A stretch of 33,512 nucleotides of DNA from a candidate division WWE3 bacterium (GCA_014729135.1 WJKK01000001.1:695407-728918), one strand, 5' to 3'; shown: positions 1 through 33,512, counted from the first letter of the stretch. Made by a program: numbers and translations. Notes: generated from the sequence alone by a model not told the origin.

Positions 1-545
1 CTAATGAAAATAAACAGATTGAGTGTAAGAAGGTTTTTTAGGTTAGACTGTTGGTGGAATTTTTCCATGTAATAAAAGGATAAAGTCATAAAAAAGAGGA
101 AATAGATTTCAGTCATGAACCCTAAAGAAGAGTAGATATACAAAGGGTTAAGAAAAAGGAGTAGAGAAATTAGAAGGGTAGGAAGTGGTTGAATATTTTT
201 TAACAGGAGTGTCTTTGCAAAAAAGTAAAACGTTAGAACTGAAAGGGTAAGGGTTAAAATTGGAAGCCGGCCTGTTCCAAAGAGGGCAGCAAAGACCATA
301 CCTAAAATACCCTGGGTATAAAAAGTGGTACTTATGTAAGGATGAAGGTTGAAGTTGCCTTGTAGGAATTGCTGTACTAAAAGGTAACGTGTGTGTTCGT
401 CGTTTTGTATGAAGTTTATGGAGAGGGTGAGTGGGAGGAGGAGAAGAAAAAGGAGTAAGGCGGTTATTTCAAGGTAGTACTTGTTTAAAAAGGACTTGAG
501 TTTGGCATTTTTTAGGCTAGATAATGATTTCGAAGCAAATAGCAT
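1..545 (-). CDS. Polytopic membrane protein, N-terminal part only (gene runs off the left edge); possibly GT-C (ArnT/PMT-like) glycosyltransferase
   Basis: Absent from the supplied ORF track. Hand translation of the minus strand from ATG at 545-543 gives 181 sense codons with no stop down to position 3 (MLFASKSLSSLKNAKLKSFLNKYYLEITALLLFLLLLPLTLSINFIQNDEHTRYLLVQQFLQGNF...). It has repeated hydrophobic spans. The acidic NDEHTRY loop after the first TM weakly resembles GT-C enzymes. Confidence 0.5.
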   Translation of the reverse strand, partial: MLFASKSLSSLKNAKLKSFLNKYYLEITALLLFLLLLPLTLSINFIQNDEHTRYLLVQQFLQGNFNLHPYISTTFYTQGILGMVFAALFGTGRLPILTLTLSVLTFYFFAKTLLLKNIQPLPTLLISLLLFLNPLYIYSSLGFMTEIYFLFFMTLSFYYMEKFHQQSNLKNLLTLNLFIFI

Positions 546-553
546 TACTTGGA

Positions 554-724
554 TTATCTACGAGAAAGGCAGTTTCTGCAAAAGCGAGCAGTAGCTTTGC
601 GAGCTTTAAAGCGCTTCCCACAACGACTGCACTTTCTAATGAAACGACCCCCATTTCTTTTTTTTACGTCCAAACATACTCCTATGTTAACACGAATAGA
701 AGTACCTAAAATCCGCCTATGCAT
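554..724 (-). CDS. Small zinc-ribbon protein, hypothetical
   Basis: C-terminal KCSRCGKRFKARKATARFCRNC is a CxxC-x12-CxxC knuckle pair. Its stop lies 8 nt before the ATG of the membrane-protein gene at 545. The track ORF starts at 793 and overlaps the divergent gene at 782, so the internal Met (MHRRILG, 724) is preferred. Weak call. Confidence 0.3.
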   Translation of the reverse strand: MHRRILGTSIRVNIGVCLDVKKRNGGRFIRKCSRCGKRFKARKATARFCRNCLSRR

Positions 725-781
725 AGATTCGCCGAATATTTGCGTAGGTTTACAAAAAGTGCTATAAATAATACATAAGAC

Positions 782-1507
782 ATGCGTAAACAAAGATTAA
801 GCATTGGAAAAGCTGCAGATTATCTAAATGTTTCCATAGATACGCTTAGAAGATGGGACAAAAAAGGAAAACTACCCGCTAACAGAACTAAAGGGGGTCA
901 TAGATTTTATTACAAGCACAATCTTGAACTTTACAAAAAAAACATATTTGCCCTCGCTAAGGAGTGGCTACTGAACAAACCCGCAGAACCCTCTCAAAAA
1001 TTTTATTGCCCTACAAGTCTAGAATTTAAACAAAAACTTTCACTATTAGAAAAAAATTTAAAAAGAAGAAAAAAGTTCGCAAAAGATTATCCATTAATTG
1101 TCGCAATAGCGGGGGAAATAGGAAACAACTCCTATGACCATAATCTAGGAAATTGGCCCGACATAAGCGGATCCTTTTTTGCTAATAACATAAATAAAAA
1201 ACAAATTGCCCTTGCCGACAGGGGGCAGGGGATTTTAAGGACATTAGGGAGAGTGAAGGAAAATATCCAAAGTGACAAAGAGGCTTTATACATTGCTTTT
1301 ACAAAGGTAATCTCAGGAAGAGCCCCTGAAACAAGAGGGAACGGCCTAAAATTTGTCCGCAATGTAATTCTACAAAGTGAAATAAAATTATCTCTAGAGT
1401 TTTACAGTGGAAAGGGAAGAGCAGTATTCATGAGTGGAAACGAGAAAGGGATGTTTAGTACAATAGACACGTATTATCCTGGATGTTTAGCATTATTAAA
1501 ATTTTAA
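782..1507 (+). CDS. MerR/excisionase-type HTH fused to a GHKL (HATPase_c-like, SpoIIAB/RsbW-like) ATP-binding domain
   Basis: N-terminus LSIGKAADYLNVSIDTLRRWDKKGKL...GGHRFY is an HTH_17/MerR-type motif. The C-terminal half carries an N-box-like EIGNNSYDHN, a G1-like ADRGQGI and a G2-like RGNGLKFV. Confidence 0.6.
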   Translation: MRKQRLSIGKAADYLNVSIDTLRRWDKKGKLPANRTKGGHRFYYKHNLELYKKNIFALAKEWLLNKPAEPSQKFYCPTSLEFKQKLSLLEKNLKRRKKFAKDYPLIVAIAGEIGNNSYDHNLGNWPDISGSFFANNINKKQIALADRGQGILRTLGRVKENIQSDKEALYIAFTKVISGRAPETRGNGLKFVRNVILQSEIKLSLEFYSGKGRAVFMSGNEKGMFSTIDTYYPGCLALLKF

Positions 1508-1516
1508 ACTAAAAAC

Positions 1517-3034: not shown

Positions 3035-3595
3035 ATGACTAAAGTAAAAAGTGCCCACAACCTAATTGTGGGACTCTTCCTTTTAGCTTTTATCCTTTCA
3101 CTACAGGTTTCTAAGCCTAGTGAGGCTAAAAGCACTATAGCTAAAGGAAAAGAGGAAAAAAGAATAGAAAAAACACATGAAATTACCTTTACTACAGTAA
3201 ATAGGGTAGAGGTACTGAAGAAATTCCTGGAAAAGTATAACTCCCCTCTAGCAGAGGAGGCTGAAACTTTTGTAAGAGTTGCAGATGAAAAAAACCTGGA
3301 TTACAGGTTGCTACCTGCTATTTCTTGTATGGAATCTACATGTGGTAAGTTCACCCCTCAGGGAAGCTATAACGCTTGGGGATGGGGTATTTATGGCACT
3401 AATATGATTACTTTTAATTCTTGGGAAGAGGCTATAGAAACTGTAGGGGAGGGTATTGCTAAAAACTATGCAGCTAATGGTCTAAATACTCCCGAGGAGA
3501 TGGCTCCTGTTTATACACCTCCCAACTCTGTGAACTGGAGTAACGGTGTGCGCTTTTTTATGAATCAGATGGATGAAATTGCCTTAGATAGTTAA
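3035..3595 (+). CDS. Secreted putative peptidoglycan-hydrolase-like protein (paralog of the C-terminal domain of 1919..2806)
   Basis: Signal peptide-like N-terminus (LIVGLFLLAFILSLQVSKPSEA). Carries YRLLPAISCMESTCGKFTP...YNAWGWGIYGTN...YTPPNSVNW, colinear with the upstream paralog. Confidence 0.6.
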   Translation: MTKVKSAHNLIVGLFLLAFILSLQVSKPSEAKSTIAKGKEEKRIEKTHEITFTTVNRVEVLKKFLEKYNSPLAEEAETFVRVADEKNLDYRLLPAISCMESTCGKFTPQGSYNAWGWGIYGTNMITFNSWEEAIETVGEGIAKNYAANGLNTPEEMAPVYTPPNSVNWSNGVRFFMNQMDEIALDS

Positions 3596-5314: not shown

Positions 5315-6304
5315 ATGAAAGCAAAAGTAAAAAAACTACCAAAATCAACACTTCAATTAGAAATATCTGTTCCGGCTGAAGACGTCAAAAAAGCTTACGA
5401 CACTGTTCTGGAAAAAGTAGCTAAATCTGCAGACATCAAAGGCTTTAGAAAAGGAAAAGCTCCCAAAGACATGGTCGAGAAAAACCTTGATCCCTCTAAA
5501 CTACGGGGAGAAGTTGTTAATCACCTCCTGGAAAAATACTACATCCAGGCGCTAAAAGAGAACAAAATTAATCCTATCTCAAACCCCAAAGTGGAAATTC
5601 AAAAATTTGACATGGAAGAAGATTTTGAATTTACAGCTACTGTGGCGACTCGCCCGGAAGTTAAACTAGGCGACTATAAAAAAGCGCTTAAAAAGAAACT
5701 GGAAGAACGCCATAATGAAGTGAAAAAGCAAAAGGAGCAAGCACTAAAAGAAGGCAAGAAGATGCCGGAAATTCATGACCATCTGCACACACAAGAAATT
5801 ATCCGGACTATAACGGAAACGGCAGAAGTAGAAGTTCCTGATTTGCTTGTAGAAGATGAAATTGATCGTATGCGCGCACGTCTAGTGGATCAAATGCAAA
5901 ATATAGACATGGGCCTAGATGATTATCTTAAGGCTAAAAATCAAACTGCCGAGCAATTAAATGCGGAGTTTACAGAGCAAGCGGTGCAGAATTTAAAAGC
6001 GGAGTTTGTTTTGGCGCAGGCCATTACTGAAACAGATATTGAGGTTACGGATGAAGAGATAGAGGAAATGGCTAAGGCCTCAGGGGATCCTGAAGCAATT
6101 GAAAACCTTAAAGATCCGGCTAACAAGTGGTATATAAAAAATATTTTGGAAAAAAATAAGTTCTTAACGGATTTGATGGAGGAGTTGGAGGGGTCTTCGG
6201 AGGAGAAAGGCGAAAAGGAAGAGGGCGCGAAAGGAAAAAAGTCAGAAAACAAAGAGACTAAAAAGAAAAAAGAAGATAAAGTTAACAAAAAGGAGGAAAA
6301 ATAA
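5315..6304 (+). CDS. tig: Trigger factor, short form apparently lacking the FKBP/PPIase domain, with a K/E-rich tail
   Basis: The N-domain carries the ribosome-binding signature GFRKGKAP. The C-terminal arm domain is recognisable (VPDLLVEDEIDRM...). The protein is only 329 aa including an approximately 45-aa KE-rich tail. Confidence 0.85.
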   Translation: MKAKVKKLPKSTLQLEISVPAEDVKKAYDTVLEKVAKSADIKGFRKGKAPKDMVEKNLDPSKLRGEVVNHLLEKYYIQALKENKINPISNPKVEIQKFDMEEDFEFTATVATRPEVKLGDYKKALKKKLEERHNEVKKQKEQALKEGKKMPEIHDHLHTQEIIRTITETAEVEVPDLLVEDEIDRMRARLVDQMQNIDMGLDDYLKAKNQTAEQLNAEFTEQAVQNLKAEFVLAQAITETDIEVTDEEIEEMAKASGDPEAIENLKDPANKWYIKNILEKNKFLTDLMEELEGSSEEKGEKEEGAKGKKSENKETKKKKEDKVNKKEEK

Positions 6305-6900
6305 TGAACCAAAACTCACTAGTACCAATAGTTGTAGAAAAAAACGCCCAAGGAAATGAGCGTTCCTACGACATTTACTCCCGATTATTAAAAGACTTCA
6401 TAGTTTTTGTCACCGGACCCATCGAAATGGGCATGGCAAACACTTTTATTGCCCAAATGCTCTACTTAGAAAGCGAAGATCCTGAAAGACAAATTAACGT
6501 TTACATCAACTCTCCCGGAGGCGTCGCCTATGCGGGAAGAGCTATGTACGACACCATTCGCCATGTTAAAAACCCTGTAAGCACCATTAACGTAGGCCTT
6601 GCAGCTTCAGCAGGCGCCATGCTTTTGGCAGGAGGCAACGAAGGACTCCGTTATGGATTGCCGGGTAGTTTTACAATGATTCATCAGGTTTTAGGTGGAG
6701 TTGAAGGGCAGGCAACGGATGTGGAAATTGAGGCTCGTCATATGTTAAATTTGCGAAAACAGTATGCTCAGATTATTGCGGATAGAACAGGGCAAGATTT
6801 GAAGAAGGTTCAGGATGATATTGAGCGCAATAATTGGATGGATGCGGAGGAGTCTCTGAATTACGGTATAATCGATAAGATTATGGAACCTAAGGATTAG
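6304..6900 (+). CDS. clpP: ATP-dependent Clp protease proteolytic subunit with Asn in place of the catalytic Asp
   Basis: YDIYSRLLKD and YINSPGG are present. The Ser is in GLAASAG and the His in MIHQ. The Asp position (RDNF in S. aureus and B. subtilis ClpP) reads RNNW. The start overlaps the tig stop (ATAATG). Confidence 0.9.
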   Translation: MNQNSLVPIVVEKNAQGNERSYDIYSRLLKDFIVFVTGPIEMGMANTFIAQMLYLESEDPERQINVYINSPGGVAYAGRAMYDTIRHVKNPVSTINVGLAASAGAMLLAGGNEGLRYGLPGSFTMIHQVLGGVEGQATDVEIEARHMLNLRKQYAQIIADRTGQDLKKVQDDIERNNWMDAEESLNYGIIDKIMEPKD

Positions 6901-6976
6901 GGCTCTTAGCTCAGCTGGTTAGAGCGCATCAGTGACATTGATGAGGTCACAGGTTCGAGTCCTGTAGAGCCCACCA
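6900..6976 (+). tRNA. tRNA-Val (anticodon GAC), CCA encoded
   Basis: Acceptor GGGCTCT/AGAGCCC. D arm GCTC-AGCTGGTTA-GAGC. Anticodon arm CATCA-GTGACAT-TGATG. T arm ACAGG-TTCGAGT-CCTGT. The first base is the last base of the clpP stop codon. Confidence 0.9.
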
Positions 6977-9749: not shown

Positions 9750-9773
9750 AGCAGGCTTTAAGCCTGCTTTTTT
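9750..9773 (+). terminator. Intrinsic terminator (8-bp stem, 3-nt loop, T5)
   Basis: agcaggct tta agcctgct ttttt. It lies 234 nt after the GT4 stop and 110 nt before the tasA-like start. Confidence 0.7.
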
Positions 9774-10959: not shown

Positions 10960-10975
10960 TTTAGTGACTTCTTTG

Positions 10976-11002
10976 GAGGTTCAATTAAAAAAATTGAACC
11001 TC
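10976..11002 (+). terminator. 11-bp hairpin after the first tasA-like gene (possible partial terminator)
   Basis: gaggttcaatt aaaaa aattgaacctc followed by ttat. Confidence 0.4.
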
Positions 11003-11010
11003 TTATAGAA

Positions 11011-12794: not shown

Positions 12795-12814
12795 CCTCTA
12801 GTCGGTTTTTAGGG

Positions 12815-21785: not shown

Positions 21786-21795
21786 GAAGTACCAC

Positions 21796-21820: not shown

Positions 21821-21838
21821 TTAAAAGGAAAAGTAACT

Positions 21839-22060: not shown

Positions 22061-22073
22061 GAGCAAAATAGAT

Positions 22074-22421
22074 ATGCCAAGAGTAAAAGGAGGGCCAAGA
22101 GCCCGAAAAAGACATAAAAAAGTCCTGAAAAAAGCTAAAGGTTACAGAATGACCCGAAGTAAGCTCTTTAAGAGAGCTAATGAAGCTGTAATGCGCGCAG
22201 GAGAACATGCCTTCCATGGAAGAAAAGAAAAAAAGCGAGACTTTCGTAAGCTTTGGATTCAAAGAATTACCGCTGCTTTAGATGGAACCGGCCTAAACTA
22301 CAGCCGTTTTATTAACCTTCTAAAAAAGAAAAACATTACGCTAAACCGTAAAATGCTTTCACAACTTGCTATCATTGACCTGGAAGGGTTTAGTAGCGTT
22401 GTGGAAGAAGTGCAAAAGTAA
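22074..22421 (+). CDS. rplT: 50S ribosomal protein L20
   Basis: MPRVKGGPRARKRHKKVLKKAKGY...RDFRKLWIQRI. Confidence 0.95.
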   Translation: MPRVKGGPRARKRHKKVLKKAKGYRMTRSKLFKRANEAVMRAGEHAFHGRKEKKRDFRKLWIQRITAALDGTGLNYSRFINLLKKKNITLNRKMLSQLAIIDLEGFSSVVEEVQK

Positions 22422-22475
22422 AAAACCCCTGCTATTATAGTAAATAAGCACTTAAAGTTTTTACAACCTGCAGTA

Positions 22476-23602: not shown

Positions 23603-25576
23603 ATGGTTTTGCCTATTGAATGGTTAAAAGAATACGTAAACACAAACAAATCTGCTGAAGAAATTGCAGAAACCTTTACGGCTTTGGGGTTAATGCTTGA
23701 TAAACCTATTGAAGAAAGCACTTTTGGAAATGCAGTTTTAGACCTGGAACACCGCATGGATAGGGCAGATTGGCTCTCCATTTTAGGATGTGCCAGAGAT
23801 TTTGCTGCAATGGAAGGTTTGGAACTAAAAACTCCCGAAAGAGAAATAAAAAAACCCACCCCTATAACCAAAAATGAGCAAATTCCCGTAACGGTAAATT
23901 GCCCTGAACTCGTTTCCAGATTCAACACCCGAATAATTAAAGATATTAAAGTTGAAGAATCCCCAAAATGGATGCAACAAAGACTTCAAGAATACGGCAT
24001 CCCTGCCATAAATAACATTGTAGATATAACAAACTACGTCATGGTGGAATATGGACAACCTCTACATGCTCAGGATATCGCCAAATTTGAAAAAAGAGAA
24101 ATTGTAATTCGCAAAGCCAAAGAAGACGAAACACTAACCACTTTAGATGGAACTGTCATAAAACTAACTCCCAAAATGTTTGTGTTAACTCAAAATGACA
24201 AGCCAATTACTTTGGGCGGTATTGTAGGAGGCAAGGAAACCGCTGTAACAAACGAAACTACAGATATTGTTTTAGATGCAGGAAACTATAACCAAGCAAA
24301 TATTCGCCACACTGCAAGAGCCTTAAGTATAAGAAATGAGACAGTTTTGCGATCCGAAAAGTTCTTACATCCAAAACTTACTCAAGTGGCTTTAGAAAGG
24401 GCTATTAAGTTGATTCTGGAAATTGCAGGAGGGGAGTGCTATACGAATCAGGATTGGTATCCGGCTCCACAAGAACCTCAAACTATGCAATTGCGCTACA
24501 AAAGGATTGAAAAAATTGGAGGGGAGGCGGTAAAACCCTCTGTTGTAAAGGATCTCTTGCAAAAAATAGATTATGAAATTCTGGAAGAAAGCAAGGAGGG
24601 CCTAAAACTGCAAATTCCTTATTTTAGAACGGATGTTTTGGTTGAGGATGACATTGTTTCGGACGTTCTGCGACTCCAAAATTATGAAAATATTAAAACT
24701 ATTATGCCTCCGCAAGCTCCTCCTAAAAACATTACTTTTAAGGAGCATAAGATGAAGCAAGCTGTTAGGGAGGCGTTAACTAAAATTGGAGCAGATGAGT
24801 ATGTTACAAATCCTTTGGTGGCAGCTGATTTGGAGAAGGAAGATCAGGTGCGACTGGAAAATGCTTTATCTAAAGAACAGAGTGCTTTAAGAGCTGATAT
24901 TAAGGAGACTTTGGGGAAGGTTGCAAAGGAGGCGTTTAAGCAGGGAAAACCGGGACTTATTTTTGAAGTTGGGCGGGTTTATTATAAGAAAGGTGCAGGA
25001 GCTAAGAAGGCTGAGAAGGCTTTTAAAGATTATGCAGAAGCGCGTAAGGTGACGGCTATTCAAGTGCCTTCTAAGGGTGGATATCTTAAAGAAGTGCATA
25101 AAAATTTGAAGACGGCTCTTGCCGGTTTGTTTAGTGAGCTTGAAATTAAGGATTTTTATTTTGAGCAGCCTAAAGATTCAGAAAAAGCTTTTATAAAGCA
25201 GGAGAATTTGAAGTTGGGAACGATAGAGACAACTAGTTTTAGTTTAGATATTGAGGCTTTAATAGAGGCGCAAAAAACACCTCCAAAGATTATAAGGGAG
25301 CATACAAATTCAAGTACTCTGGATTTTTCGCTTGTAGTTTCAAAGGAGCAGCGTATTGGTGAGATTACGCATGCTATTGAGATTTTGGATGAGAGAATAA
25401 AGGAGTGTAAGATTTTGGAGGAGTATACAGGCGAGGAGATTGAAAAGGGGAGTAGGGGGGTTTTACTGGAAGTTTTAATAAGCGCTGTTGATTTAACAGG
25501 GGATGATATTCAAGAGATTCAGGAAGCTGTTACAAAAAAGCTAGAAAAAACACATGGAGTAAAAATAAGAAAGTAG
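23603..25576 (+). CDS. pheT: Phenylalanine--tRNA ligase beta subunit, short form lacking the B2 (OB/tRNA-binding) domain
   Basis: The B1 start (LPIEWLKEYV) runs directly into the B3/B4 region (LDLEHRMDRADWLSILG). The B5 and FDX-ACB-like C-terminus are present. Length is 657 aa. Confidence 0.9.
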   Translation: MVLPIEWLKEYVNTNKSAEEIAETFTALGLMLDKPIEESTFGNAVLDLEHRMDRADWLSILGCARDFAAMEGLELKTPEREIKKPTPITKNEQIPVTVNCPELVSRFNTRIIKDIKVEESPKWMQQRLQEYGIPAINNIVDITNYVMVEYGQPLHAQDIAKFEKREIVIRKAKEDETLTTLDGTVIKLTPKMFVLTQNDKPITLGGIVGGKETAVTNETTDIVLDAGNYNQANIRHTARALSIRNETVLRSEKFLHPKLTQVALERAIKLILEIAGGECYTNQDWYPAPQEPQTMQLRYKRIEKIGGEAVKPSVVKDLLQKIDYEILEESKEGLKLQIPYFRTDVLVEDDIVSDVLRLQNYENIKTIMPPQAPPKNITFKEHKMKQAVREALTKIGADEYVTNPLVAADLEKEDQVRLENALSKEQSALRADIKETLGKVAKEAFKQGKPGLIFEVGRVYYKKGAGAKKAEKAFKDYAEARKVTAIQVPSKGGYLKEVHKNLKTALAGLFSELEIKDFYFEQPKDSEKAFIKQENLKLGTIETTSFSLDIEALIEAQKTPPKIIREHTNSSTLDFSLVVSKEQRIGEITHAIEILDERIKECKILEEYTGEEIEKGSRGVLLEVLISAVDLTGDDIQEIQEAVTKKLEKTHGVKIRK

Positions 25577-25589: not shown

Positions 25590-28283
25590 CTAGTAACCAC
25601 CAATCCGTACACGCACCGAATCAGAACCCTCTCGCCCCTCATCATCCTCAACCTCCACCTTCAACTCAAGCTCCTTACCAATCTCCCCATAACCAAAATC
25701 AAAATTATACCCATAAGGATCCGACTCATCCTCCGCTATCTTATCTCCATTAACGTAAATCCTAACCTCGTCAACGTCATCCGAAGCAGAAACCTCCGCC
25801 TTTAACCTAAACACCATAGGAATAGTATCGCCATCCTCAATATTTACAATCTCAATAACCGGATCCCTATCCTTAACATCACCATCATCCTCAAACTCCA
25901 AATGCGACTTCATTTGCGGGGGATAATACCGCGAATCCGAGCCATAATTCTCATAAACCCACTGATCCACACTATACTGCCACTCCGGCAAAGCTGCAGT
26001 AATCTTTACAAAAGTCTCCACATCAGTATCGCCATCATCCTTACAGGAGTCATTAGCAATTCGACCATCCTCCTCACAAATCTCGATCTTTTGATACCAG
26101 TTACTTCGCGCTGTTGGCTCTGTTCCTTTAATAAACCACTCCGGACGAGACGGAAAATCCTCAAACGGCAACATCCCTGTAAGCTCATCAACAACAACCT
26201 TCTCTACAGTTTCTGGCACCGAAAACTCCACAGGGTCACGCTCCTCCAAATAAGCAAGCATAAACTCGCGCCAAACAGGAGTAGCCCCCGAAATACCCGA
26301 CGCCACATAAGGATTCATTTTCTCATTGTTGTTATTGCCTACCCAAACGCCGGCCACTATTTCAGGCGTAAAGCCAATAGCATAGTTATCGCGCTTGTCA
26401 TCAGTAGTACCGGTTTTCACTGCCACGTCATGCCCAGAAATGTAAAGCAGACTTCGCGGGCCAAAAACTGCTGACCTAGCACCATCATCCGATAAAATGT
26501 CAGAAATTAAAAAAGCCACCTCTTTGGAGAGCACTTGCCGGCCATTGCTGGAATGCGTATATAAAACATTCCCGTGGGCATCCTTAACCTCCAAAATTGG
26601 AGTCGCCTTGCGATAAACGCCTTCACCGGCAAAAACACCAAAGGCATTAGTCATTTCTAAAAGCTTAGTTTCACCGCCACCTAAAGTTAAAGCTAACCCA
26701 AAACGCTGCCGATCCGTAAACGTGGTAATGCCCATCTCTTCGGCCATATCAATCATGTTGTCAATGCCTGCAATTTTTAGGGCTTTAACGGCGGGAATAT
26801 TTAGCGAATTACCTAAAGACTTTCGCAGGGACATAGGGCCTCTAAAGATTCCATCGTAGTTTTCGGGGACGTACGGCTTAGTAGGGGAGGAGCCTTCAAA
26901 TTTTGTGGGCACGTCCAGTAGAGGGTAAGAAGCGGGATAACCTTGTTCTAAAAGCGTGGCATAGGTTATGGGTTTAATACTGGATCCCGGTTGGCGTGGG
27001 GATAAAGCGACGTTTAGTTGCGGATCAAACTTACAGCCGTCCGGACCGGCAATTCCCGAGGTACACCCTTGTGGTTCTTGGCTTAAGAAAAATCCCTTGG
27101 AGCCCACCATTGCCAAAACCTCGCCAGTTTGCGGATCCATAGCCACCAAAGACCCATTATAAACATTTAAACTATTTTTGGCGGATTCAATTTCTTCGTA
27201 AACTATTTCTTGGGCTTTTTTCTGAAGCTCCAAATCAAGCGAGGTGGTCACCTGCAAACCGCCCTGCTCCACAACGTCCTCACCAAACATGTCGATTAAA
27301 ACGCTTTTTGCCCAAAACACAAAGTGGGGCGCTTCAAAGGAAATAGCAGCTGACTGAAATTGGAGCTCTTCCGACTTGGCGGCTTCATATTCTTCATCGC
27401 TAATATAGTGGCGCTTACCGTCGGAACCGGCCCAACCTTTGTCGTGCATTAAAGAAAGCACGTAGTTTTTGCGCTCTATTCCGGCTTGCGGATTTGCGCC
27501 AAATTGAGAGTAGTAGCTGGGGCTTTGCGGGAGTCCTGCAATGTAGGCTGCTTCTGCTAAACTTAAGTCTTTAGGGTCTTTTGCAAAGTAGGCTTTTGCT
27601 GCGGTATAGACTCCGTAGTTTTGCCCACCATAAGGGGTTTCGTTTAAGTACATTTGGATAATTTGCTCTTTGCCGTATTTGTTTTCTAGTTGAAGCGATA
27701 AAATAAATTCTTTGATTTTTCTTGAAATGGTGCGCTCTTGCGTTAATAAAGTGTTTTTGACGACTTGTTGGGTTAGTGTGGACCCTCCCTGGAGGCCTTC
27801 GCCAAATATGGTGTTTTTAAAGGCTCTTATCATGGCTTTTAAGGAGTAGCCGGAGTGTTGGTAAAAGGTGGCGTCTTCTGTTGCTAGGGTGGCGTTTATG
27901 ACGTGGGGGGAGATTTCGTCGAGGGTTACAAGGATTCGGTTTTTTTCGCCGTAGACTTCAAAGATGGCGTTGCCGTCACGGTCGTAGAGTTTTGTGGAGA
28001 GGTCTTGGCTTCTTTCAAGGAGTGTGTTGGGGTTGGGTAGGAAGCGGGAGTAGTAGGCGAAGGTTCCTATTATGAGGAGGATTCCGGAGATCATACCGAT
28101 TAAGGTTGCGGTTGTTAGGAAGGTTAGGGTTTTGGTGAGTTTTGTGTTTTGGGCGTTGGTTTTTGTGGAGGTTCTGGAGTGCGCTCTAATAATTTTTCCG
28201 GTGAATTTAGCAGCTACTGCTTTTTTATATTCTGAAATTGCTTTTTTTATCGGGTAAAAAGGCGAGTTTCGTTTGATTTTCAT
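25590..28283 (-). CDS. Class A penicillin-binding protein (GT51 transglycosylase + transpeptidase) with C-terminal extension
   Basis: GT51 motifs ATEDATFYQHSGY, GSTLTQQ and RKIKE. Transpeptidase motifs SSIKP, SLN and KTGTT. N-terminal TM anchor and an acidic Ig-like C-terminal tail. Confidence 0.9.
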   Translation of the reverse strand: MKIKRNSPFYPIKKAISEYKKAVAAKFTGKIIRAHSRTSTKTNAQNTKLTKTLTFLTTATLIGMISGILLIIGTFAYYSRFLPNPNTLLERSQDLSTKLYDRDGNAIFEVYGEKNRILVTLDEISPHVINATLATEDATFYQHSGYSLKAMIRAFKNTIFGEGLQGGSTLTQQVVKNTLLTQERTISRKIKEFILSLQLENKYGKEQIIQMYLNETPYGGQNYGVYTAAKAYFAKDPKDLSLAEAAYIAGLPQSPSYYSQFGANPQAGIERKNYVLSLMHDKGWAGSDGKRHYISDEEYEAAKSEELQFQSAAISFEAPHFVFWAKSVLIDMFGEDVVEQGGLQVTTSLDLELQKKAQEIVYEEIESAKNSLNVYNGSLVAMDPQTGEVLAMVGSKGFFLSQEPQGCTSGIAGPDGCKFDPQLNVALSPRQPGSSIKPITYATLLEQGYPASYPLLDVPTKFEGSSPTKPYVPENYDGIFRGPMSLRKSLGNSLNIPAVKALKIAGIDNMIDMAEEMGITTFTDRQRFGLALTLGGGETKLLEMTNAFGVFAGEGVYRKATPILEVKDAHGNVLYTHSSNGRQVLSKEVAFLISDILSDDGARSAVFGPRSLLYISGHDVAVKTGTTDDKRDNYAIGFTPEIVAGVWVGNNNNEKMNPYVASGISGATPVWREFMLAYLEERDPVEFSVPETVEKVVVDELTGMLPFEDFPSRPEWFIKGTEPTARSNWYQKIEICEEDGRIANDSCKDDGDTDVETFVKITAALPEWQYSVDQWVYENYGSDSRYYPPQMKSHLEFEDDGDVKDRDPVIEIVNIEDGDTIPMVFRLKAEVSASDDVDEVRIYVNGDKIAEDESDPYGYNFDFGYGEIGKELELKVEVEDDEGREGSDSVRVRIGGY

Positions 28284-28352
28284 TGTCTGATTATATCACG
28301 CGGGATTTAGGGGACGAGGGTAAAAAGTGGGTTTAAATTTCTAGGTACGACA

Positions 28353-28401: not shown

Positions 28402-28614
28402 CTAAGTAAAAATGTAACTGCGAATGCGCTCCCGTGCAGAATCCCAGCAACCAACGTAAGGGTTCTGTGCAGCAGCATCTAGGTCGTCAAGAATGCGAAT
28501 CAGATACGGATGGGCGGTCATCTTCCGAATACGCTTGGAACGATCTTTGACAAACTCTACATCCACCTCTAGCTGAGACAGCTCCGCATACAACTCTTCG
28601 AGTAACTTGAACAT
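28402..28614 (-). CDS. Small helical protein, cassette member D (70 aa)
   Basis: GGAGG lies 8 nt upstream of ATG 28614; the track start is GTG 28623. MFKLLEELYAELSQLE...AHPYLIRILDDLDAAAQNPYVGCWDSARERIRSYI. Confidence 0.55.
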   Translation of the reverse strand: MFKLLEELYAELSQLEVDVEFVKDRSKRIRKMTAHPYLIRILDDLDAAAQNPYVGCWDSARERIRSYIFT

Positions 28615-28627
28615 AGATCCCACCTCC

Positions 28628-28843
28628 CTAATAGTTTCTCTTTAAATACCGATCCAACTCCATGGCACAACGCTGACATGCCTTAACGTTGGATGTATCG
28701 GAGAGCCAAATATTTATGGCATCCAATATCCCTATGAGGTCAGCGTCCCGCGTCTCGTCGCGGATAAAACTTAGATCCTGCGCTCCCGGGGCACGGTACC
28801 CTTGAAGTGCGCGCAAAACACGTCGCAATGTCTCTTTCACCAC
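28628..28843 (-). CDS. Small helical protein, cassette member C (71 aa)
   Basis: GTG start preceded by AGGAGG at a 4-nt spacing. ...RDADLIGILDAINIWLSDTSNVKACQRCAMELDRYL. Confidence 0.55.
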   Translation of the reverse strand: MVKETLRRVLRALQGYRAPGAQDLSFIRDETRDADLIGILDAINIWLSDTSNVKACQRCAMELDRYLKRNY

Positions 28844-28853
28844 AACACCTCCT

Positions 28854-29084
28854 TTACCAACTACCGTCCAACCAACCTACCAACCAATCATGTAGTCCAG
28901 CCCAATCCGCCTCCTGGGGGTTCTTAAGAGACCACTCGAGCGACCCCCAAAAGTTTGCCAAAGACGGATCTCGTGAAAGGGCTCTGGCCTGGAGCATAAG
29001 CTCATTGATCTTTTGGATATCCCGAAATTCGGTCGTATCCAGATAATCAAGAAGCGCCCGGATCACCTGTATAAAAGAAGCCAT
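28854..29084 (-). CDS. Small helical protein, cassette member B (76 aa)
   Basis: The ATG immediately follows the TAG stop of member A, in the same frame. GAGGAGGAG lies just upstream. ...RDPSLANFWGSLEWSLKNPQEADWAGLHDWLVGWL. Confidence 0.55.
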   Translation of the reverse strand: MASFIQVIRALLDYLDTTEFRDIQKINELMLQARALSRDPSLANFWGSLEWSLKNPQEADWAGLHDWLVGWLDGSW

Positions 29085-29282
29085 CTACTCCTCCTCTACG
29101 TAACCGGCGTCTTCAAGCTCTCGGAGAGCATTCAAAATCTCCTCTCTGGAACGCCGTTTAATAATGTTGCAGAGATAATCCAGATCTCCGCTGCCACCAT
29201 TCAACATATGGGTGAGTATTGCATCAGCCAAAGTGCTTAGGGCATCTCGCGGATCCTTTACACCTGTGCCTACCTTATACAC
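29085..29282 (-). CDS. Small protein, cassette member A (65 aa), possibly HTH-like
   Basis: GTG start with AGGAGG 6 nt upstream. KDPRDALSTLADAILTHMLNGGSGDLDYLCNIIK followed by SREEILNALRELEDAGYV, which looks like the end of a winged helix. Confidence 0.55.
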   Translation of the reverse strand: MYKVGTGVKDPRDALSTLADAILTHMLNGGSGDLDYLCNIIKRRSREEILNALRELEDAGYVEEE

Positions 29283-29374: not shown

Positions 29375-30565
29375 ATGGCAGTTAACACAGACCCGCGAAA
29401 AATCGATGAGATCCTCACTAGAGGAGTGCACGAAATCTTCACCAAAGAGGACCTGCGTGAAAGACTCCTTAGTGGAAAGCAACTACACCTAAAGCTAGGC
29501 ACCGACGTTACAGGCCCCCGCCTCCATTTAGGACACGCCGTAGTCCACCGCAAAATTCGCGACTTCCAAGAACTTGGCCACAAAGTCACTCTGGTGATTG
29601 GTGATTACACAACTTTGGTAGGCGACCACTCCGACAAAGTAGACATGCGCGCTGAAATCACTCCCGAGGAAATCAAAAAGAATGAGGAAACCTACAAGGA
29701 ACAGTTTTTTAAGACCGTCAAAAAGGAGCAAACTGAAATTAAGCACAACTCCGACTGGCTTGCTGACCTGCAACTTTTGGACGTTATTAATCTGACAAAA
29801 CAGTTCACAATTGCGCAAATGCTGGATCGCGAAACTTTTAAGCTTAGATACGAGCAAAACAAGCCTATCGGGCTAGATGAGTTTTTGTATCCGCTAATGC
29901 AGGGCTATGATTCGGTGGCGCTAAAATGCGACGTTGAGTTTGGCGGTACAGATCAGACTTTTAATTTGTTGGCGGGAAGAAAGTTGATGGAGGTGTTTGA
30001 TCAAAAACCTCAATGCGCTTTTGTTATGAGGCTTTTAACAGGAGCGGATGGGCGACCTATGGGAAAGAGTCTTAAGAATTTTATTCCTCTTACTGACAAT
30101 GCTAATGACATGTATGGAAAAGTTATGGCAGTTGTGGATGAGGTGATTTTTGAATATTTTGAGCTGGTGACACGTGTTCCTATGGAGGAGATTAGCAAAA
30201 TGCAGGCCGCTGTTGAGACGGGGGAAAATCCTATGAAGTTTAAGAAGCGCCTGGCTAGAGAGATTGTTACTTTTTATCATTCTAAGGAGGCGGCGCAAAA
30301 GGCGGAGGAGTTTTTTGAGAGCACGGTTCAAGGGGAAGAGCTTCCGGAGGAGATGCCTGAAATTGAAGTTGAGGAGGACGTAGCTTTGTATGTGAATGCC
30401 TCTAAGGTAGCACCAAAAATGTCCAAGTCGCAGGTGCGTAGAATCATTAAGCAGGGTGGTTTTGAGGTGAATGGCGAGAAAATGACGGATCCTTTGGCGG
30501 AGGTTACTTTGAAATCGGGGGATGTTTTAAAGCTTGGCAAGCGCCGTTATGGGAGGGTTAAATAG
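29375..30565 (+). CDS. tyrS: Tyrosine--tRNA ligase with C-terminal S4-like domain
   Basis: HIGH-type HLGH, KMSKS-type PMGKS, GTDQ, and a C-terminal SKSQVRRIIKQGGFEVNGEK S4 fold. Confidence 0.85.
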   Translation: MAVNTDPRKIDEILTRGVHEIFTKEDLRERLLSGKQLHLKLGTDVTGPRLHLGHAVVHRKIRDFQELGHKVTLVIGDYTTLVGDHSDKVDMRAEITPEEIKKNEETYKEQFFKTVKKEQTEIKHNSDWLADLQLLDVINLTKQFTIAQMLDRETFKLRYEQNKPIGLDEFLYPLMQGYDSVALKCDVEFGGTDQTFNLLAGRKLMEVFDQKPQCAFVMRLLTGADGRPMGKSLKNFIPLTDNANDMYGKVMAVVDEVIFEYFELVTRVPMEEISKMQAAVETGENPMKFKKRLAREIVTFYHSKEAAQKAEEFFESTVQGEELPEEMPEIEVEEDVALYVNASKVAPKMSKSQVRRIIKQGGFEVNGEKMTDPLAEVTLKSGDVLKLGKRRYGRVK

Positions 30566-30577
30566 GGATTTTAGACT

Positions 30578-30898
30578 ATGAAGTTTTTGAATTCTTTAAA
30601 GGAGGCTCTAAAAGGAGCAAAGAAAAAGAAGAGGTATTGCTTAATTTCTAAGTGGGGAAAGACGTTGGGAAAACTCCATAGGGAGAAGTGTTTTTTTGTG
30701 AAGTTACAGGAGCAGTTTAAAAAGCGCCGTAAAAAGAAGAAGGCTAAGCATAATTTTAGGAAGATTTTTAAGAGTATTCGAAAGGGTGTGCGTAAGTTTT
30801 TTAAGACGTTGTTTAAAAAGGAGACGCTGGCAAAGATTTTGATTGTTGTGGCTACGGTGTCTATGCTCCTTCCGTTGATTCTGCCGTTTTTGGGCTAA
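30578..30898 (+). CDS. Highly basic tail-anchored small membrane protein, hypothetical
   Basis: 106 aa. The N-terminal approximately 80 aa are extremely K/R-rich (KKKKRY, KKRRKKKKAKH). There is a single C-terminal TM (ILIVVATVSMLLPLILPFLG). Confidence 0.5.
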   Translation: MKFLNSLKEALKGAKKKKRYCLISKWGKTLGKLHREKCFFVKLQEQFKKRRKKKKAKHNFRKIFKSIRKGVRKFFKTLFKKETLAKILIVVATVSMLLPLILPFLG

Positions 30899-30984
30899 TT
30901 TACCTTTACTTTCGAAATAAAAATGTTAATCTTCCCTCAGGTGATTGACCAGAGTACATAGTTAAGGTGGAAAAAGGAGGTCTT

Positions 30985-31182
30985 ATGAAAAGCGTGGATT
31001 TGGCATATGCGTTAAACGCAGCAATGTGCACCGAGGAAGGCCCAAATCCCTCACAAATCAAATGCCTCAAGGCTCAAGCCGACGAAGGAACAACCCTTCA
31101 TGAATTTGCACTGGCATGCGAGAGAAGGGATTATAACGAGGCTTGTCGCCTTTTCTCGGAGTGGGCCCGTTGTTCAGCATGA
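30985..31182 (+). CDS. Small Cys-rich helical protein (65 aa), cassette-like member E
   Basis: AGGAGG lies 5 nt before ATG 30985; the track start is GTG 30967. MKSVDLAYALNAAMCTEEGPNPSQIKCLKAQ... Composition is GC-richer. Confidence 0.5.
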   Translation: MKSVDLAYALNAAMCTEEGPNPSQIKCLKAQADEGTTLHEFALACERRDYNEACRLFSEWARCSA

Positions 31183-31184: not shown

Positions 31185-31228
31185 TTTTCCGCAGGCGGAA
31201 GCCGTTAAGAAGTGCCGCCTGTGGAAAA
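31185..31228 (+). terminator. 14-bp hairpin after the small ORF (putative terminator, no U-run)
   Basis: ttttccgcaggcgg (31185-31198) pairs with ccgcctgtggaaaa (31215-31228), including one G-U pair, with a 16-nt loop. Confidence 0.4.
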
Positions 31229-31290
31229 CTCCCCCATAAATACACAATACTATCCCTCCCGCATCGCTTTAAACACCACCCACGACAAAG

Positions 31291-31296
31291 TATAAT
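31291..31296 (+). promoter_or_regulatory. Consensus -10 (TATAAT), 7 nt before the recG ATG
   Basis: tataat at 31291-31296 and ATG at 31304. No SD. Confidence 0.4.
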
Positions 31297-31303
31297 ACTC
31301 CAG

Positions 31304-33355
31304 ATGAAACTTGATGATAAAGTTACAAAAGTACCTCAAGTAGGCCCAAAATCCAAAGAAAAACTTGCAAACCTAAAAATTGAAACCATAAAAGACCTCC
31401 TTTATCACTTTCCCTTTCGCTACGAGGACCGCTCAAAAATAGAAAACATCCAAAACGTCCTTAAAAGTCATCAAAATGGCAAAGACACGCAAAATCCCGT
31501 TACTATAAAGGCAAAACTCACCAAAATTAAAAACATTTACACAAAAAATTGCAAGCGCCTTACAAGGGCAGCAGCTCAAGACGAAACCGGCGAAATTCAA
31601 CTTATCTGGTTTAATATGCACTATTTAAAGCGGTCGCTTAGAGTAGGGGAGACCTATTTGATTAGCGGGAAGGTTGGCACTTTTAGTGGGAAAACTTCGC
31701 TGATTGTGCCTCAAATGGAAAAGGAGCAGGTGACAAACCTACATATTGGACGTATTGTCCCTATTTATCATCAAACGGAAGGTATTAGCTCACGTTGGCT
31801 GCGTTCCAGGATTAACGACGTCTTGGCGGGGGTTGAGGAGGAAAAATTTGGTGGGCTTGTTGAGGAGTTTTTGCCGGAGAAATTGCTAGAAAAGTATGCG
31901 CATTTGGTTTTAGGCGAGGCTTTAAAGCAGATTCACTTTCCGGATGATTTTGATTTGCTGGAAAAGGCGCGGGCTCGGCTGGGTTATAACGAGCTTTTTC
32001 ATGAGCTTGTGCGTGTGGAAAAGGTTAAGCAAAAGTGGGAGCTGCAGCATAATCCGGTGGAGATTGACTTTGATGAGGGGATTTTGGAGGATTTTGTGGA
32101 GAAGCTGCCTTTTAGGCTTACTAATGAGCAGATAGTGGCTGTGGAGGAGATTCTGGAGGACTTTAGGGAGGGGGCAGCGGGGCTTCCAATGAATCGATTG
32201 CTGGAGGGGGATGTGGGGACAGGCAAGACGGTGGTGGCTATTGTGGCGGCGCTTGCTAACTTGGAGTCAGGACGAAATGTTTTGTATATGGCTCCTACGG
32301 AGATTCTGGCCCGGCAGCACTTTGCAACGTTTGCTAAATTCCTACCTGAGAAGTGGAGACCGTACCTACAGCTCGTAACAGGGGACAGTCCTCGCAGAGG
32401 ACTGTCCCCTGAGAGGACTGTCCTTTCAAAGGACAGTCCCCTCATCACTATAGGCACGCACGCGCTACTTTACAAAAAGCAGAAATACAAAAACGTAGGG
32501 CTTGTAATCATCGACGAACAGCACCGCTTTGGCGTAGAACAACGAGAAAAACTCCTTAGTTACAACAGCGACAAAACCACTCCACATCTTCTAACCATGA
32601 CCGCAACACCCATTCCAAGAACGTTGGCGCTTACCTTGTATGGCGACCTGGAAATTAGCACGCTAACCGAAAAACCCCGCAAAGAAGCGAAAATCATCAC
32701 CAAAGTTGTGCCTAACTCCAAGCGAAAAGAAATCTTCAAGTGGATAGCAGCCAAAAACGAGCCCACCTTCATAGTTTGCCCTTTTGTAGAGGAAAGCACA
32801 CATCCGGCGTTCGCTGACGTGAAAGCAGCTACAACCGAATATGAAACCCTTAAAAAAGGCGCACTTAAAGGCAAGAAAGTAGGCGTTTTGCATGGGCAGC
32901 TTTCCTCACAAGAAAAGCAAAAAGTGGTGGAAAAGTTTGAAAAAGGCAAGTTGGACGTTTTGGTCTCCACGCCGGTCATAGAGGTGGGCATAGACATTCC
33001 CGATGCAACTGTTATGGTTATTGAAAGTGCTGAAAGGTTTGGGTTGGCTTCGCTTCATCAGTTGAGGGGGCGTGTAGGGCGTGGCAAAAAAGATGGTTAT
33101 TGTTTTGTTTTTGCCAGTAGTGAGGAAAAGGAGCGGGGGGAGTCTAATGCTATTAAGCGTTTGAAGAATTTGGAGAAGTTTGAGGATGGTTTGAGTTTGG
33201 CGGAGATTGATTTGAAGATGCGTGGGCCGGGGGAGATTTATGGAGTGGAGCAGCATGGGTTTAAGAATTTTAAGATTGCAGATTTGAGCGATATTAACTT
33301 GATTGAAAATGTGAAAAAGGATGTTAAGATGTACCTCGAAAGTTTTCAAGGATGA
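31304..33355 (+). CDS. recG: ATP-dependent DNA helicase RecG
   Basis: The start was moved from the track's 31100 to Met 31304 (MKLDDKVTKVPQVGPKSKEKL..LYHFPFRYEDRS). Wedge domain, GDVGTGKT, MAPTEILARQH, DEQHRFG, TATPIPRT and QLRGRVGRG are all present. Confidence 0.9.
   Translation: MKLDDKVTKVPQVGPKSKEKLANLKIETIKDLLYHFPFRYEDRSKIENIQNVLKSHQNGKDTQNPVTIKAKLTKIKNIYTKNCKRLTRAAAQDETGEIQLIWFNMHYLKRSLRVGETYLISGKVGTFSGKTSLIVPQMEKEQVTNLHIGRIVPIYHQTEGISSRWLRSRINDVLAGVEEEKFGGLVEEFLPEKLLEKYAHLVLGEALKQIHFPDDFDLLEKARARLGYNELFHELVRVEKVKQKWELQHNPVEIDFDEGILEDFVEKLPFRLTNEQIVAVEEILEDFREGAAGLPMNRLLEGDVGTGKTVVAIVAALANLESGRNVLYMAPTEILARQHFATFAKFLPEKWRPYLQLVTGDSPRRGLSPERTVLSKDSPLITIGTHALLYKKQKYKNVGLVIIDEQHRFGVEQREKLLSYNSDKTTPHLLTMTATPIPRTLALTLYGDLEISTLTEKPRKEAKIITKVVPNSKRKEIFKWIAAKNEPTFIVCPFVEESTHPAFADVKAATTEYETLKKGALKGKKVGVLHGQLSSQEKQKVVEKFEKGKLDVLVSTPVIEVGIDIPDATVMVIESAERFGLASLHQLRGRVGRGKKDGYCFVFASSEEKERGESNAIKRLKNLEKFEDGLSLAEIDLKMRGPGEIYGVEQHGFKNFKIADLSDINLIENVKKDVKMYLESFQG
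32381..32443. repeat. In-frame GC-rich double palindrome inside recG
   Basis: The first palindrome is ggggacagtcctc gca gaggactgtcccc, a 13-bp perfect stem. The second is gaggactgtcc tttcaaa ggacagtcccctc. Together they encode GDSPRRGLSPERTVLSKDSPL. Confidence 0.85.
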
Positions 33356-33489
33356 TCCTTAGTTAAGCAGGTGCTTTTCCTTTTTATAGAAGGACAGAAG
33401 TGGGATTAGACCAAGGATAATCCTTGAAAAGCGTGCCTGAATCACTTTAACGAAAAGACGTAAGAGGTATTTACACAAGGATAATCCTT
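33347..33489. repeat. Three copies of the 14-bp palindrome CAAGGAT(A/G)ATCCTT at 64-65 bp spacing
   Basis: Copies lie at 33347-33360 (it contains the recG stop), 33412-33425 and 33476-33489. Each is followed by an A-rich tract. The series reaches the window edge. Confidence 0.8.
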
Positions 33490-33512
33490 AAAAACGAGAA
33501 CATGTTAAGAAT

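Follow-up and report, generated by a model that had tools for sequence, protein, structure and literature searches.

Many genes of a 33,512-nt stretch of DNA from a candidate division WWE3 bacterium (GCA_014729135.1 WJKK01000001.1:695407-728918; this whole stretch is referred to as the window) change their base composition from one end to the other: their 5′ parts are rich in A and C at third codon positions (A3 and C3) and their 3′ parts in G and T (G3 and T3), equivalent, on the coding strand, to C→T and A→G. Read 5′ to 3′ on either strand, the keto (G+T) skew climbs gradually in units and falls abruptly at unit ends, forming a rising sawtooth across positions 1-33512, with ~15 units in 33 kb that are each ~0.7-2.7 kb long and follow open reading frames (ORFs) only loosely. 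The pattern is specific to this lineage, and it extends past codon choice and past the mRNA. What could produce it? We give about an even chance to a lineage-specific, strand-asymmetric mutation pressure whose polarity flips in domains the size of transcription units, taking the mutational class as a whole and choosing no sub-model within it. All results come from one window of one genome (33.5 kb of the 864,248-nt contig on which its PheT is recorded, 41% G+C, ~34 ORFs, the majority on the plus strand); gene starts are ORF-based and promoter calls are consensus matches.

The original prediction had described a gene-scale G/C skew, with coding strands that begin C-rich and end G-rich, from hand counts on 60-nt blocks. 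All 13 of these counts were reproduced exactly, and the 5′-to-3′ polarity proved to be real and stronger than claimed, with a clear trend at third codon positions, the absence of which the original prediction had named as its refutation. The G/C skew itself is present, yet the variable that defines the pattern is keto versus amino (A+C) rather than G versus C alone. We scored sites at which C/T or A/G are synonymous, counting G and T as keto, A and C as amino. At these sites, the keto fraction rises 5′ to 3′ in 25 of 33 ORFs (Wilcoxon p = 1e-4), most strongly in the gene of a class A penicillin-binding protein (PBP; p = 5e-57, rho +0.51), with clpP, the membrane protein gene memb272, pheT and tyrS each reaching p < 1e-11. 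In a metagene of the 33 ORFs, G/C skew at third positions (GC3 skew) runs through -0.34, -0.34, -0.17, -0.02, +0.15, +0.07, +0.16, +0.16, +0.29 and +0.32 from first to last decile, and T/A skew at the same positions (TA3 skew) goes from -0.25 to +0.13. The difference in GC3 skew between last and first third of a gene was 0.514, against 0.069 ± 0.032 when synonymous codons were shuffled within genes (z = 14); the same test for TA3 gave z = 11. The two skews move together, G and T being enriched jointly on one strand, and in forty-codon bins A3 and C3 drop jointly as G3 and T3 climb. By codon position, the trend is largest at third positions and mainly synonymous, which rules out amino-acid composition as its source (skew amplitude, 0.66 at third positions vs 0.37 at position 1; relatives already reach 0.20 at position 1).

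The shift involves every codon family, each of which moves from NNC to NNT and from NNA to NNG between 5′ and 3′ blocks, as exemplified by Asp GAC (0.68 to 0.15), Glu GAA (0.80 to 0.29), Thr ACC (0.47 to 0.04) and Tyr TAC (0.73 to 0.15). Third positions consist of A 0.37, C 0.33, G 0.11 and T 0.20 in 5′ blocks, and of T 0.38, G 0.36, C 0.06 and A 0.19 in 3′ blocks, so stated for blocks that were picked on the keto statistic, a procedure that fixed the keto total and not its partition among bases (the same applies to the context statistics). In composition, the 5′ blocks come close to complementing the 3′ blocks, making the two states near mirror images. Expressed as ratios, T/(C+T) goes from 0.3 to 0.85 and G/(A+G) from 0.17 to 0.62. 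Amino-acid usage follows, with Thr falling from 7.9% to 4.5% and Glu increasing from 7.4% to 11.8%. The choice between C and T or A and G showed no TC-, WRC- or CpG-like dependence on neighbouring bases, and hence no sign of a motif-specific deaminase.

Within single genes, GC3 skew changes between first and last third from -0.28 to +0.92 in pheT, -0.72 to +0.59 in the PBP gene, -0.63 to +0.79 in clpP, -0.57 to +0.88 in memb272 and -0.37 to +0.68 in tyrS. In the PBP gene, the synonymous-site keto fraction spans 0.09 to 0.91: codons 40-160 have C3 ~0.6, A3 ~0.33, G3 ~0.02 and T3 ~0.07, and codons 760-897 have T3 ~0.5, G3 ~0.4, A3 0.05 and C3 0.05. The regions that display the pattern, and the one that largely does not, are as follows.

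25590-28283, minus strand: class A PBP gene (Transgly, Transpeptidase, Big_7), the strongest case; keto fraction 0.17 in the 5′ part (28280-27462), 0.54 in the middle (27461-26319), 0.85 in the 3′ part (26315-25593).
23603-25576, plus strand: pheT; keto 0.38 (23606-24376), then 0.70 (24377-25573), with C3 at 0.00-0.05 across the last ~250 codons.
31304-33355, plus strand: recG, with its likely true start at 31304 and TATAAT at 31291; keto 0.30 (31205-31606), 0.79 (31610-32335), 0.38 (32336-33007) and 0.83 (33008-33352).
29375-30898, plus strand: tyrS and an ORF of 106 codons (orf106) forming one unit; tyrS keto 0.33 (29378-29755), then 0.72 (29759-30562); orf106 (30578-30898) keto-rich throughout, its start codon without a reset.
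5315-6900, plus strand: tig and clpP, overlapping at 6304; tig keto 0.32, then 0.56, with a reset to the A/C-rich state near 6206, ~98 nt before the clpP ATG; clpP keto 0.25 to 6648 and 0.78 from 6649.
17351-18320, plus strand: memb272 (17451-18269) and its upstream spacer; A/C-rich over 17351-17630, including 93 nt of spacer, and keto-rich over 17945-18318.
8347-9516, plus strand: family-1/4 glycosyltransferase gene (GT389); reset ~40 codons past the start, keto-rich from 8866 to the stop codon.
19407-23030, plus strand: multi-ORF units, with thrS (weakly A/C-rich start) and infC (keto-rich) making one rise, and rpmI (keto 0.16), rplT and the 5′ half of pheS (0.70) a second.
1-545, minus strand: 5′ portion of an ORF for a membrane protein, cut off by the window's left end; first ~60 codons A/C-rich on the coding strand (plus-strand keto 0.79 over 348-528), a third minus-strand ORF with the same polarity at its 5′ end.
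9883-16045, plus strand: two camelysin/TasA-like genes, a signal peptidase gene, a lamin-tail-domain (LTD) gene and the first part of an LPXTG surface ORF, with little or no gradient.

The two cycles that the original prediction had read in recG are thus borne out, and those in the surface ORF are also present, in weaker form. Likewise, the tasA-like genes and a set of small ORFs, in which it had seen the pattern only weakly, lack it in the per-gene synonymous-site test. The LTD, surface-ORF and sortase genes are syntenic in a relative, L075, and so recent acquisition does not explain the missing pattern there.

How regular is the sawtooth? It was traced in a 150-nt skew profile and with a three-state hidden Markov model (emissions 0.20/0.43/0.75), in which the path drops directly from the keto-rich (K) to the amino-rich (M) state seven times and never jumps directly from M to K, arguing for a sawtooth with polarity and not a random mosaic. 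In 60-codon bins the rises look graded and saturating; change-point analysis divides them into blocks of 59-273 codons. The skew on the plus strand changes sign ~15 times in 33.5 kb, whereas replication skew would hold one sign per replichore, which upholds the earlier statement that this is not replichore skew; a small positive offset on that strand (G 7426 vs C 6336) may be an ordinary replication component. The accompanying statement that the pattern follows gene direction on both strands stands insofar as it excludes a replichore-wide skew, but it cannot separate models based on gene direction from models based on boundaries: a low-to-high profile is its own reverse complement, and the claim is therefore equivalent to plus-strand skew rising inside every unit and dropping where the unit ends.

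Units can be smaller than one ORF, as in recG and the surface ORF with two units each, or span several, as in thrS with infC, tyrS with orf106, and rpmI and rplT with 5′ pheS. Resets may lie off the start codon, ~98 nt before it (inside tig) or ~120 nt after it (in the glycosyltransferase gene). Six of the ~15 resets coincide with -10-like boxes; six intragenic resets whose sequences were inspected shared no box or -10-like element, and short inverted repeats match a reset in recG only. A comparison of operon-internal with first genes, suggested by the original prediction, found the gradient equally present in both (mean rho ~0.21 for operon-internal ORFs vs 0.17 for ORFs with their own promoters, hand-averaged from per-gene values). 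Protein-domain borders were considered as block borders and rejected, as they fit the PBP and glycosyltransferase genes but not recG, clpP (a single domain) or tyrS.

Comparison with relatives, likewise proposed beforehand, shows the gradient to be absent elsewhere. Among 5.8 billion proteins, the closest relative of the window's PheT is 57% identical and the named matches belong to candidate division WWE3 and other Patescibacteria, which places the organism, as judged from this protein, as a deep-branching member of the candidate phyla radiation. A scan by PheT alignment, with one genome per GTDB species, yielded 74 loci from WWE3, Microgenomates and related groups. Across their 729 ORFs of at least 150 codons, mean rho was +0.005 (sd 0.065, maximum 0.21) and the metagene was flat; 10 of 22 window ORFs exceed the relatives' 99th percentile. 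Nine genes were aligned with 17-65 orthologues each, and the orthologues keep a keto fraction of ~0.36-0.57 along their whole length while the window copies swing between 0.09 and 0.93; flat examples are PBP (0.51-0.57, n = 57), pheT (0.40-0.48, n = 65) and recG (0.42-0.46, n = 41). L075, the closest syntenic relative, matches the window's gene order from the lamin-tail gene to recG and is essentially gradient-free, with rho at 0.12 for PBP, 0.13 for recG and near zero for the others, and with keto at 0.39/0.48 in rpmI/rplT.

These alignments also reveal that the shift is not confined to synonymous sites. The keto difference between window and orthologues at positions 1 and 2 tracks the deviation at third positions (r = 0.61, p = 1.6e-9, 81 bins), most closely in recG (r = 0.90) and PBP (r = 0.83). 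Nor does it begin with the message. Extended -10-like boxes (TGnTAnAAT or TATAAT) precede eight genes:

4603, plus strand: antitoxin gene.
5297, plus strand: tig.
7069, plus strand: ATPase gene.
17429, plus strand: memb272.
29360, plus strand: tyrS.
31291, plus strand: recG.
18953, minus strand: truB.
28290-28298, minus strand: PBP gene.

The boxes lie 6-8 nt before the ATG (21 nt at memb272), a spacing which suggests that the mRNAs of these genes are probably leaderless or near-leaderless. Upstream of memb272, tyrS, recG and thrS, the 100 nt before the gene have a keto fraction of 0.30-0.34 and are amino-rich like the coding 5′ blocks; upstream-100 GC skew is -0.39 to -0.43 for memb272, tyrS and recG. 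Intergenic upstream regions of the relatives (n = 421) average 0.48 ± 0.06, with 1.9% at or below 0.35. L075 has the same boxes before memb272, tyrS and recG (upstream of 4871, 15572 and 17267 in its sequence), 6-10 nt before the corresponding ATGs, and its upstream DNA is of ordinary composition despite the conserved boxes. Consensus scans for promoters and terminators returned counts equal to those in shuffled sequence and are uninformative as a whole; individual sites are still used here, namely the terminator hairpin of GT389 (9750-9768) and the memb272 box (17406-17434).

Taken together, the shift of all codon families, the mirror-image states, the shift at positions 1 and 2 and that of upstream DNA speak for a force that works on the composition of the DNA itself, not on which codons are used or on the message. 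The joint occurrence of C→T and A→G on a single strand is classically the mark of deamination in single-stranded DNA. Near mirror-image states are expected of one process acting on opposite strands, and on the deamination view the 5′ state implies that the other strand is exposed there; the gradual, saturating rise and the abrupt drop fit graded exposure. We infer a mutational pressure that arises because one strand is exposed as single-stranded DNA, or resynthesised, more than the other. Most changes would be transitions, with a polarity that flips along kilobase-scale domains roughly matching genes or transcription units. From ~100 nt before the start codon, at the upstream end of a unit, the template strand would gain G/T and leave the coding strand A/C-rich; towards the stop codon, the coding strand itself would gain G/T by C→T and A→G. 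Purifying selection on proteins would mask most of the change at positions 1 and 2, leaving mainly a switch among synonymous codons.

Two candidate processes come to mind. One would combine two transcription-linked regimes, a promoter-proximal one and a distance-dependent exposure of the non-template strand, for example through R-loops that cover distal positions more. The other would start from unit ends at which stalling, nicking or breakage recurs; 5′-to-3′ resection from there would give a rising sawtooth with abrupt drops because the 3′-ended strand is exposed on each side. Both would, we infer, fit the polarity, and loss of the repair of deaminated bases could explain why the effect is large in this lineage only. 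The specific version in which mutation switches strands with position—the template strand being more exposed or resynthesised near the promoter, the coding strand near the end, through stalling or breakage with resection or through an R-loop gradient, either possibly amplified by repair loss—is put forward tentatively, as somewhat less than an even bet. Exposure of the lagging-strand template in fixed Okazaki fragments was rejected by reasoning, since it predicts a falling sawtooth where a rising one is observed.

Among the three hypotheses offered by the original prediction, a transcription-linked mutational asymmetry fits best in its general form, given the C→T/A→G signature, the shift at positions 1 and 2, the reach into promoter DNA, the lack of a context motif and the uniform behaviour of all codon families. 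Its specific form, an asymmetry that grows with distance from the start, fails on its own: the 5′ state is not neutral but the mirror of the 3′ state, resets occur inside recG, the surface ORF, tig and the glycosyltransferase gene, and there is none between tyrS and orf106.

Several observations weigh against a mutational origin. The keto-rich state of GT389 ends at the stop codon and does not run through the 3′ untranslated region (3′ UTR), which up to the terminator hairpin (9750-9768) is not keto-rich and is the only 3′ UTR that could be checked; this points to the ORF rather than the transcript. The truB, MerR-like and antitoxin genes have promoters of their own without showing the pattern, and the gradient in pheS runs the opposite way. 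Together, the GT389 3′ UTR and the exceptions (truB, pheS and the surface-protein genes) misfit a simple transcription-unit model. At fourfold sites the purine fraction climbs from 0.40 to 0.51, so transitions alone are insufficient, and G versus C is the stronger axis. Direction and rate of the changes are deduced from composition alone, with the nearest relative 57% identical in PheT, and the restriction to a single window of one genome counts here as well. Finally, we know of no bacterial process that has been shown to leave one strand exposed in the first half of a gene and the opposite one in the second.

The most serious rival, though an unlikely one, is selection on RNA, under which the A/C-rich 5′ parts would be kept non-pairing, C-rich and G-poor, and thereby open to ribosomes, and to Rho if left untranslated, while the G/U-rich 3′ parts would be structured and Rho-resistant. 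Since reverse complementing leaves the profile unchanged, a transcript that entered a gene antisense from its 3′ end would begin with a Rho-loading stretch too. The many seemingly leaderless genes suit such a scheme, as does a C/G ratio of ~1.4 in 5′ blocks and ~0.45 in 3′ blocks, which fits Rho loading, and GT389 ceases to be keto-rich at its stop codon rather than at its terminator. Folding predictions are divided: the 5′ 700 nt of the PBP gene fold very weakly (-6 to -15 kcal/mol per 120 nt, as compared to -23 to -35 later on) and so do both A/C-rich blocks of recG, but the 5′ blocks of tyrS and clpP show no such lack of structure. Rho, moreover, prefers pyrimidine-rich RNA, and in 5′ blocks T3 is down and A3 up. 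For the hypothesis in the original prediction that C-rich, G-poor 5′ regions may load Rho, the C/G ratio fits but this change in T and A does not. Also against selection on RNA are the location and the extent of the signal, as the A/C-rich state covers ~100 nt of promoter DNA outside the predicted leaderless mRNA, spans 100-270 codons, far beyond what initiation or a ~80-nt rut (Rho utilisation) site needs, and resets inside ORFs. Effective selection would be required at nearly all synonymous sites of genes with low expression such as recG and PBP, and L075 has the same leaderless promoters but no gradient. The same findings—L075's promoters without a gradient, an A/C-rich state upstream of predicted starts and 5′ folding that is weak in PBP and recG but not in tyrS and clpP—speak against the earlier proposal that structure-poor 5′ halves support leaderless initiation.

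Could codons instead be chosen for translation? In that case, a minimal tRNA set with UNN/GNN anticodons, to which A/C-ending codons pair in Watson-Crick fashion, would favour those codons early in a gene and leave wobble-read G/T-ending codons to accumulate late. The two tRNA anticodons of the window, GAC (Val) and TAG (Leu), suit a sparing set, and rpmI, encoding a ribosomal protein, uses nearly only A/C-ending codons (keto 0.16). Its counterparts are unremarkable, however, since relatives are flat and rpmI/rplT of L075 stand at 0.39/0.48. Nor would tRNA supply be expected to yield near mirror-image states, to shift positions 1 and 2 and the DNA upstream of predicted leaderless starts alike, or to place resets off start codons and leave one start codon without any; and the 3′ state is not a relaxed drift towards AT, with G3 reaching 0.35-0.55. 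We consider such codon selection improbable.

Still less probable, by a little, is a recombination mosaic, in which segments imported from a lineage of opposite strand bias would create alternating blocks with sharp borders. Borders are indeed fairly sharp in clpP, recG and tyrS, and two in PBP (codons 273 and 655) are near Pfam domain borders (278 and 638). A mosaic should be non-polar, though, and the A/C-rich block comes first in at least 12 genes, with seven K-to-M drops and no M-to-K jump; the rise is graded in PBP, tig and memb272, and no donor-like sequence closer than 57% was found among 5.8 billion proteins. An artefact of sequencing, assembly or damage, for example a strand-specific base conversion, has the slimmest chance of all: these proteins are carried by one contig only, but an artefact cannot know the reading frame, and here the shift is concentrated at synonymous sites, the reading frames are unbroken, and alignments with orthologues run over the full length of the proteins at 50-75% identity.

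Beyond the skew, the window offers a number of observations on its genes. It holds genes for a MerR-like regulator, an antitoxin/PIN pair, tig, clpP and an AAA_14/DUF4143 ATPase; a glycosyltransferase, two camelysin/TasA-like proteins, a signal peptidase and a lamin-tail-domain protein; an LPXTG surface ORF, a sortase and the membrane protein memb272; truB (minus strand), thrS, infC, rpmI, rplT, pheS and pheT; the class A PBP and four small ORFs (both minus strand), tyrS and recG; as well as tRNA-Leu(TAG) and tRNA-Val(GAC).

In recG, positions 32379-32444 contain four palindromic GGACWGTCC cores at 16-nt spacing, which form nested inverted repeats with arms of 15-23 nt that are 83-100% complementary. 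The repeats are in frame and encode 'GDSPRRGLSPERTVLSKDSP', and the internal skew reset lies 45-100 nt upstream of them; RNA folding here is predicted at -58 kcal/mol per 120 nt, and the GGACWGTCC motif has no other occurrence in the window. At about equal length, the stretch appears to take the place of what other RecG proteins have, as we understand it, between helicase motifs Ia and II. At residues 374-420, the surface ORF (14441-16732, 763 codons) carries an LPXTG anchor together with a hydrophobic stretch and a basic tail. Beyond these come a second hydrophobic segment and ~340 more residues, which end in an acidic tail rich in Gly and Glu and a further membrane anchor. The arrangement resembles a fusion of two surface proteins within a single frame, and the L075 counterpart is also one ORF, of 724 codons. 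In the window's ORF, the second skew cycle begins shortly past the internal anchor.

The first base of tRNA-Val(GAC) (6898-6976) is also the final one of the stop codon of clpP (6900), and tig, clpP and the tRNA therefore probably form one transcript that needs processing. For infC (window 21201-21353), the longest ORF initiated by ATG, GTG or TTG has 143 codons vs 174 in L075; unusual start codons are common in infC, and the true start is probably such a codon further upstream. A GC-rich hairpin (TTCCGGCgaaaGCCGGAA) is located 3′ of the infC stop codon, ahead of rpmI. The spacer between truB and thrS measures 468 nt and contains, over 19170-19340 and upstream of thrS, repeated GGATCCCGGATC/CAGGATCC palindromes along with several GATGACG repeats; no Rfam family, T-box included, scored above threshold in it, and the repeats could be an uncharacterised leader or a protein-binding region. 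The ORFs at 1919-2806 and 3035-3595 have N-terminal membrane anchors and a common C-terminal module with the motif 'YNAWGWG'. Neither has a Pfam match; the two probably encode secreted enzymes that are paralogues.

On the minus strand, 28402-29282 holds four ORFs in tandem, with 65-76 codons and a strong Shine-Dalgarno sequence apiece, and a fifth small ORF of 71 codons lies ahead of recG (30967-31182, plus strand). None of the five has a Pfam match; their mutual similarity is faint (12-21% identity), with one Asp and a leucine pattern in common, and the small-ORF stretch has the window's highest G+C (0.46-0.49). Strong AGGAGG Shine-Dalgarno sequences are found at surface-protein genes, clpP and the small ORFs. 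Opposite the most skewed parts of PBP and recG lie antisense ORFs of 145-190 codons (25902-26474, plus strand; 31999-32457, 32560-32997 and 32906-33349, minus strand), which probably arise from the skewed composition and are not genes.

Why would such a pattern matter? If it is mutational, the synonymous sites would chart for each gene which of the two DNA strands is vulnerable and at which positions, making the transcription- or repair-linked mutagenesis of an uncultivable bacterium legible from sequence alone. It would also mean that a local mutation bias can override genome-wide codon usage and measurably steer amino-acid composition, as in the shifts of Thr (7.9% to 4.5%) and Glu (7.4% to 11.8%). 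If selection is responsible, no synonymous constraint known from bacterial messages would come close to it in range. In practical terms, such genomes would mislead gene finders based on codon usage, tests for horizontal transfer and per-gene GC-skew tests for inversions, and would yield long spurious antisense ORFs like those opposite recG and PBP.

How does the sawtooth compare to known strand asymmetries? With replication-associated keto skew and mammalian N-domains it shares the G+T versus A+C axis and the sawtooth profile, but N-domains jump up at fixed origins and fall linearly, whereas here a gradual rise ends in an abrupt drop over ~1-3 kb. The 5′ codon ramp and the avoidance of structure at start codons resemble it in that 5′ synonymous usage differs and folding is in some cases low; they cover ~10-50 codons and are found across bacteria, whereas here 100-270 codons are involved, the 3′ state is a mirror image and relatives lack the pattern. 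Compared to rut regions, which are C-rich, G-poor, pyrimidine-rich and unstructured over ~80 nt, the 5′ blocks have more C than G but are not pyrimidine-rich and are unstructured in some genes only.

In bacteria, an excess of C→T on the non-transcribed strand was reportedly observed by Francino and Ochman and by Beletskii and Bhagwat. Such transcription-associated asymmetry enriches the coding strand in G/T, as in the 3′ parts here, and is tied to the single-strandedness of the non-template strand. However, the known effect is weak and has one sign per unit, while in the window the sign reverses, the 5′ part is equally biased, resets occur inside operons and ORFs, and the 3′ UTR of GT389 is not keto-rich. 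In vertebrate mitochondrial DNA, a gradient of strand bias follows the time spent single-stranded. The parallels are C→T and A→G on one strand (here at the level of composition only), a graded course (in PBP, tyrS and pheT), a saturating dependence on position and the near-complete loss of one base at synonymous sites; the difference is that replication sets one gradient per mitochondrial genome, against ~15 units in 33 kb with alternating strands here. The G/C disparity of Ch65 Microgenomates (PMC7143001) was set aside as a different phenomenon, having one sign chromosome-wide and no AT component.

In the literature searched, whose coverage left subscription journals outside, we found no bacterial precedent for a gene-scale 5′/3′ skew, and a gene-scale mutational sawtooth would, as no description was found, be new for prokaryotes. 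The closest precedent comes from unicellular fungi, whose genes carry opposite 5′ and 3′ GC skews (PMC3315797). The original prediction knew of no described mechanism for a gradient of this length; the fungal skews show that the phenomenon itself has been described, and the statement holds in that no mechanism has been settled. The authors weigh two ideas, mutational regimes that differ between initiation and termination, and an adaptive avoidance of C. Fungal AT skew is flat along genes, codon positions are about equally affected, and the authors argue against deamination (PMC3315797). In the window, by contrast, TA3 moves with GC3 (from -0.25 to +0.13) in a deamination-type combination, and third positions dominate. 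The settings also differ: the fungi are eukaryotes with RNA polymerase II and this is a bacterium; the fungal skew is modest and clade-wide, whereas GC3 skew here swings from -0.7 to +0.9 within single genes and the pattern is absent from 75 related loci (the 74 scanned and L075). Yet the likeness is considerable. In both, the coding strand is C-biased at 5′ and G-biased at 3′ ends, degenerate sites included; the negative skew reaches into the promoter, while the positive one is highest at the stop codon and not where the transcript ends (judged here from the one testable 3′ UTR); and amino-acid usage is dragged along.

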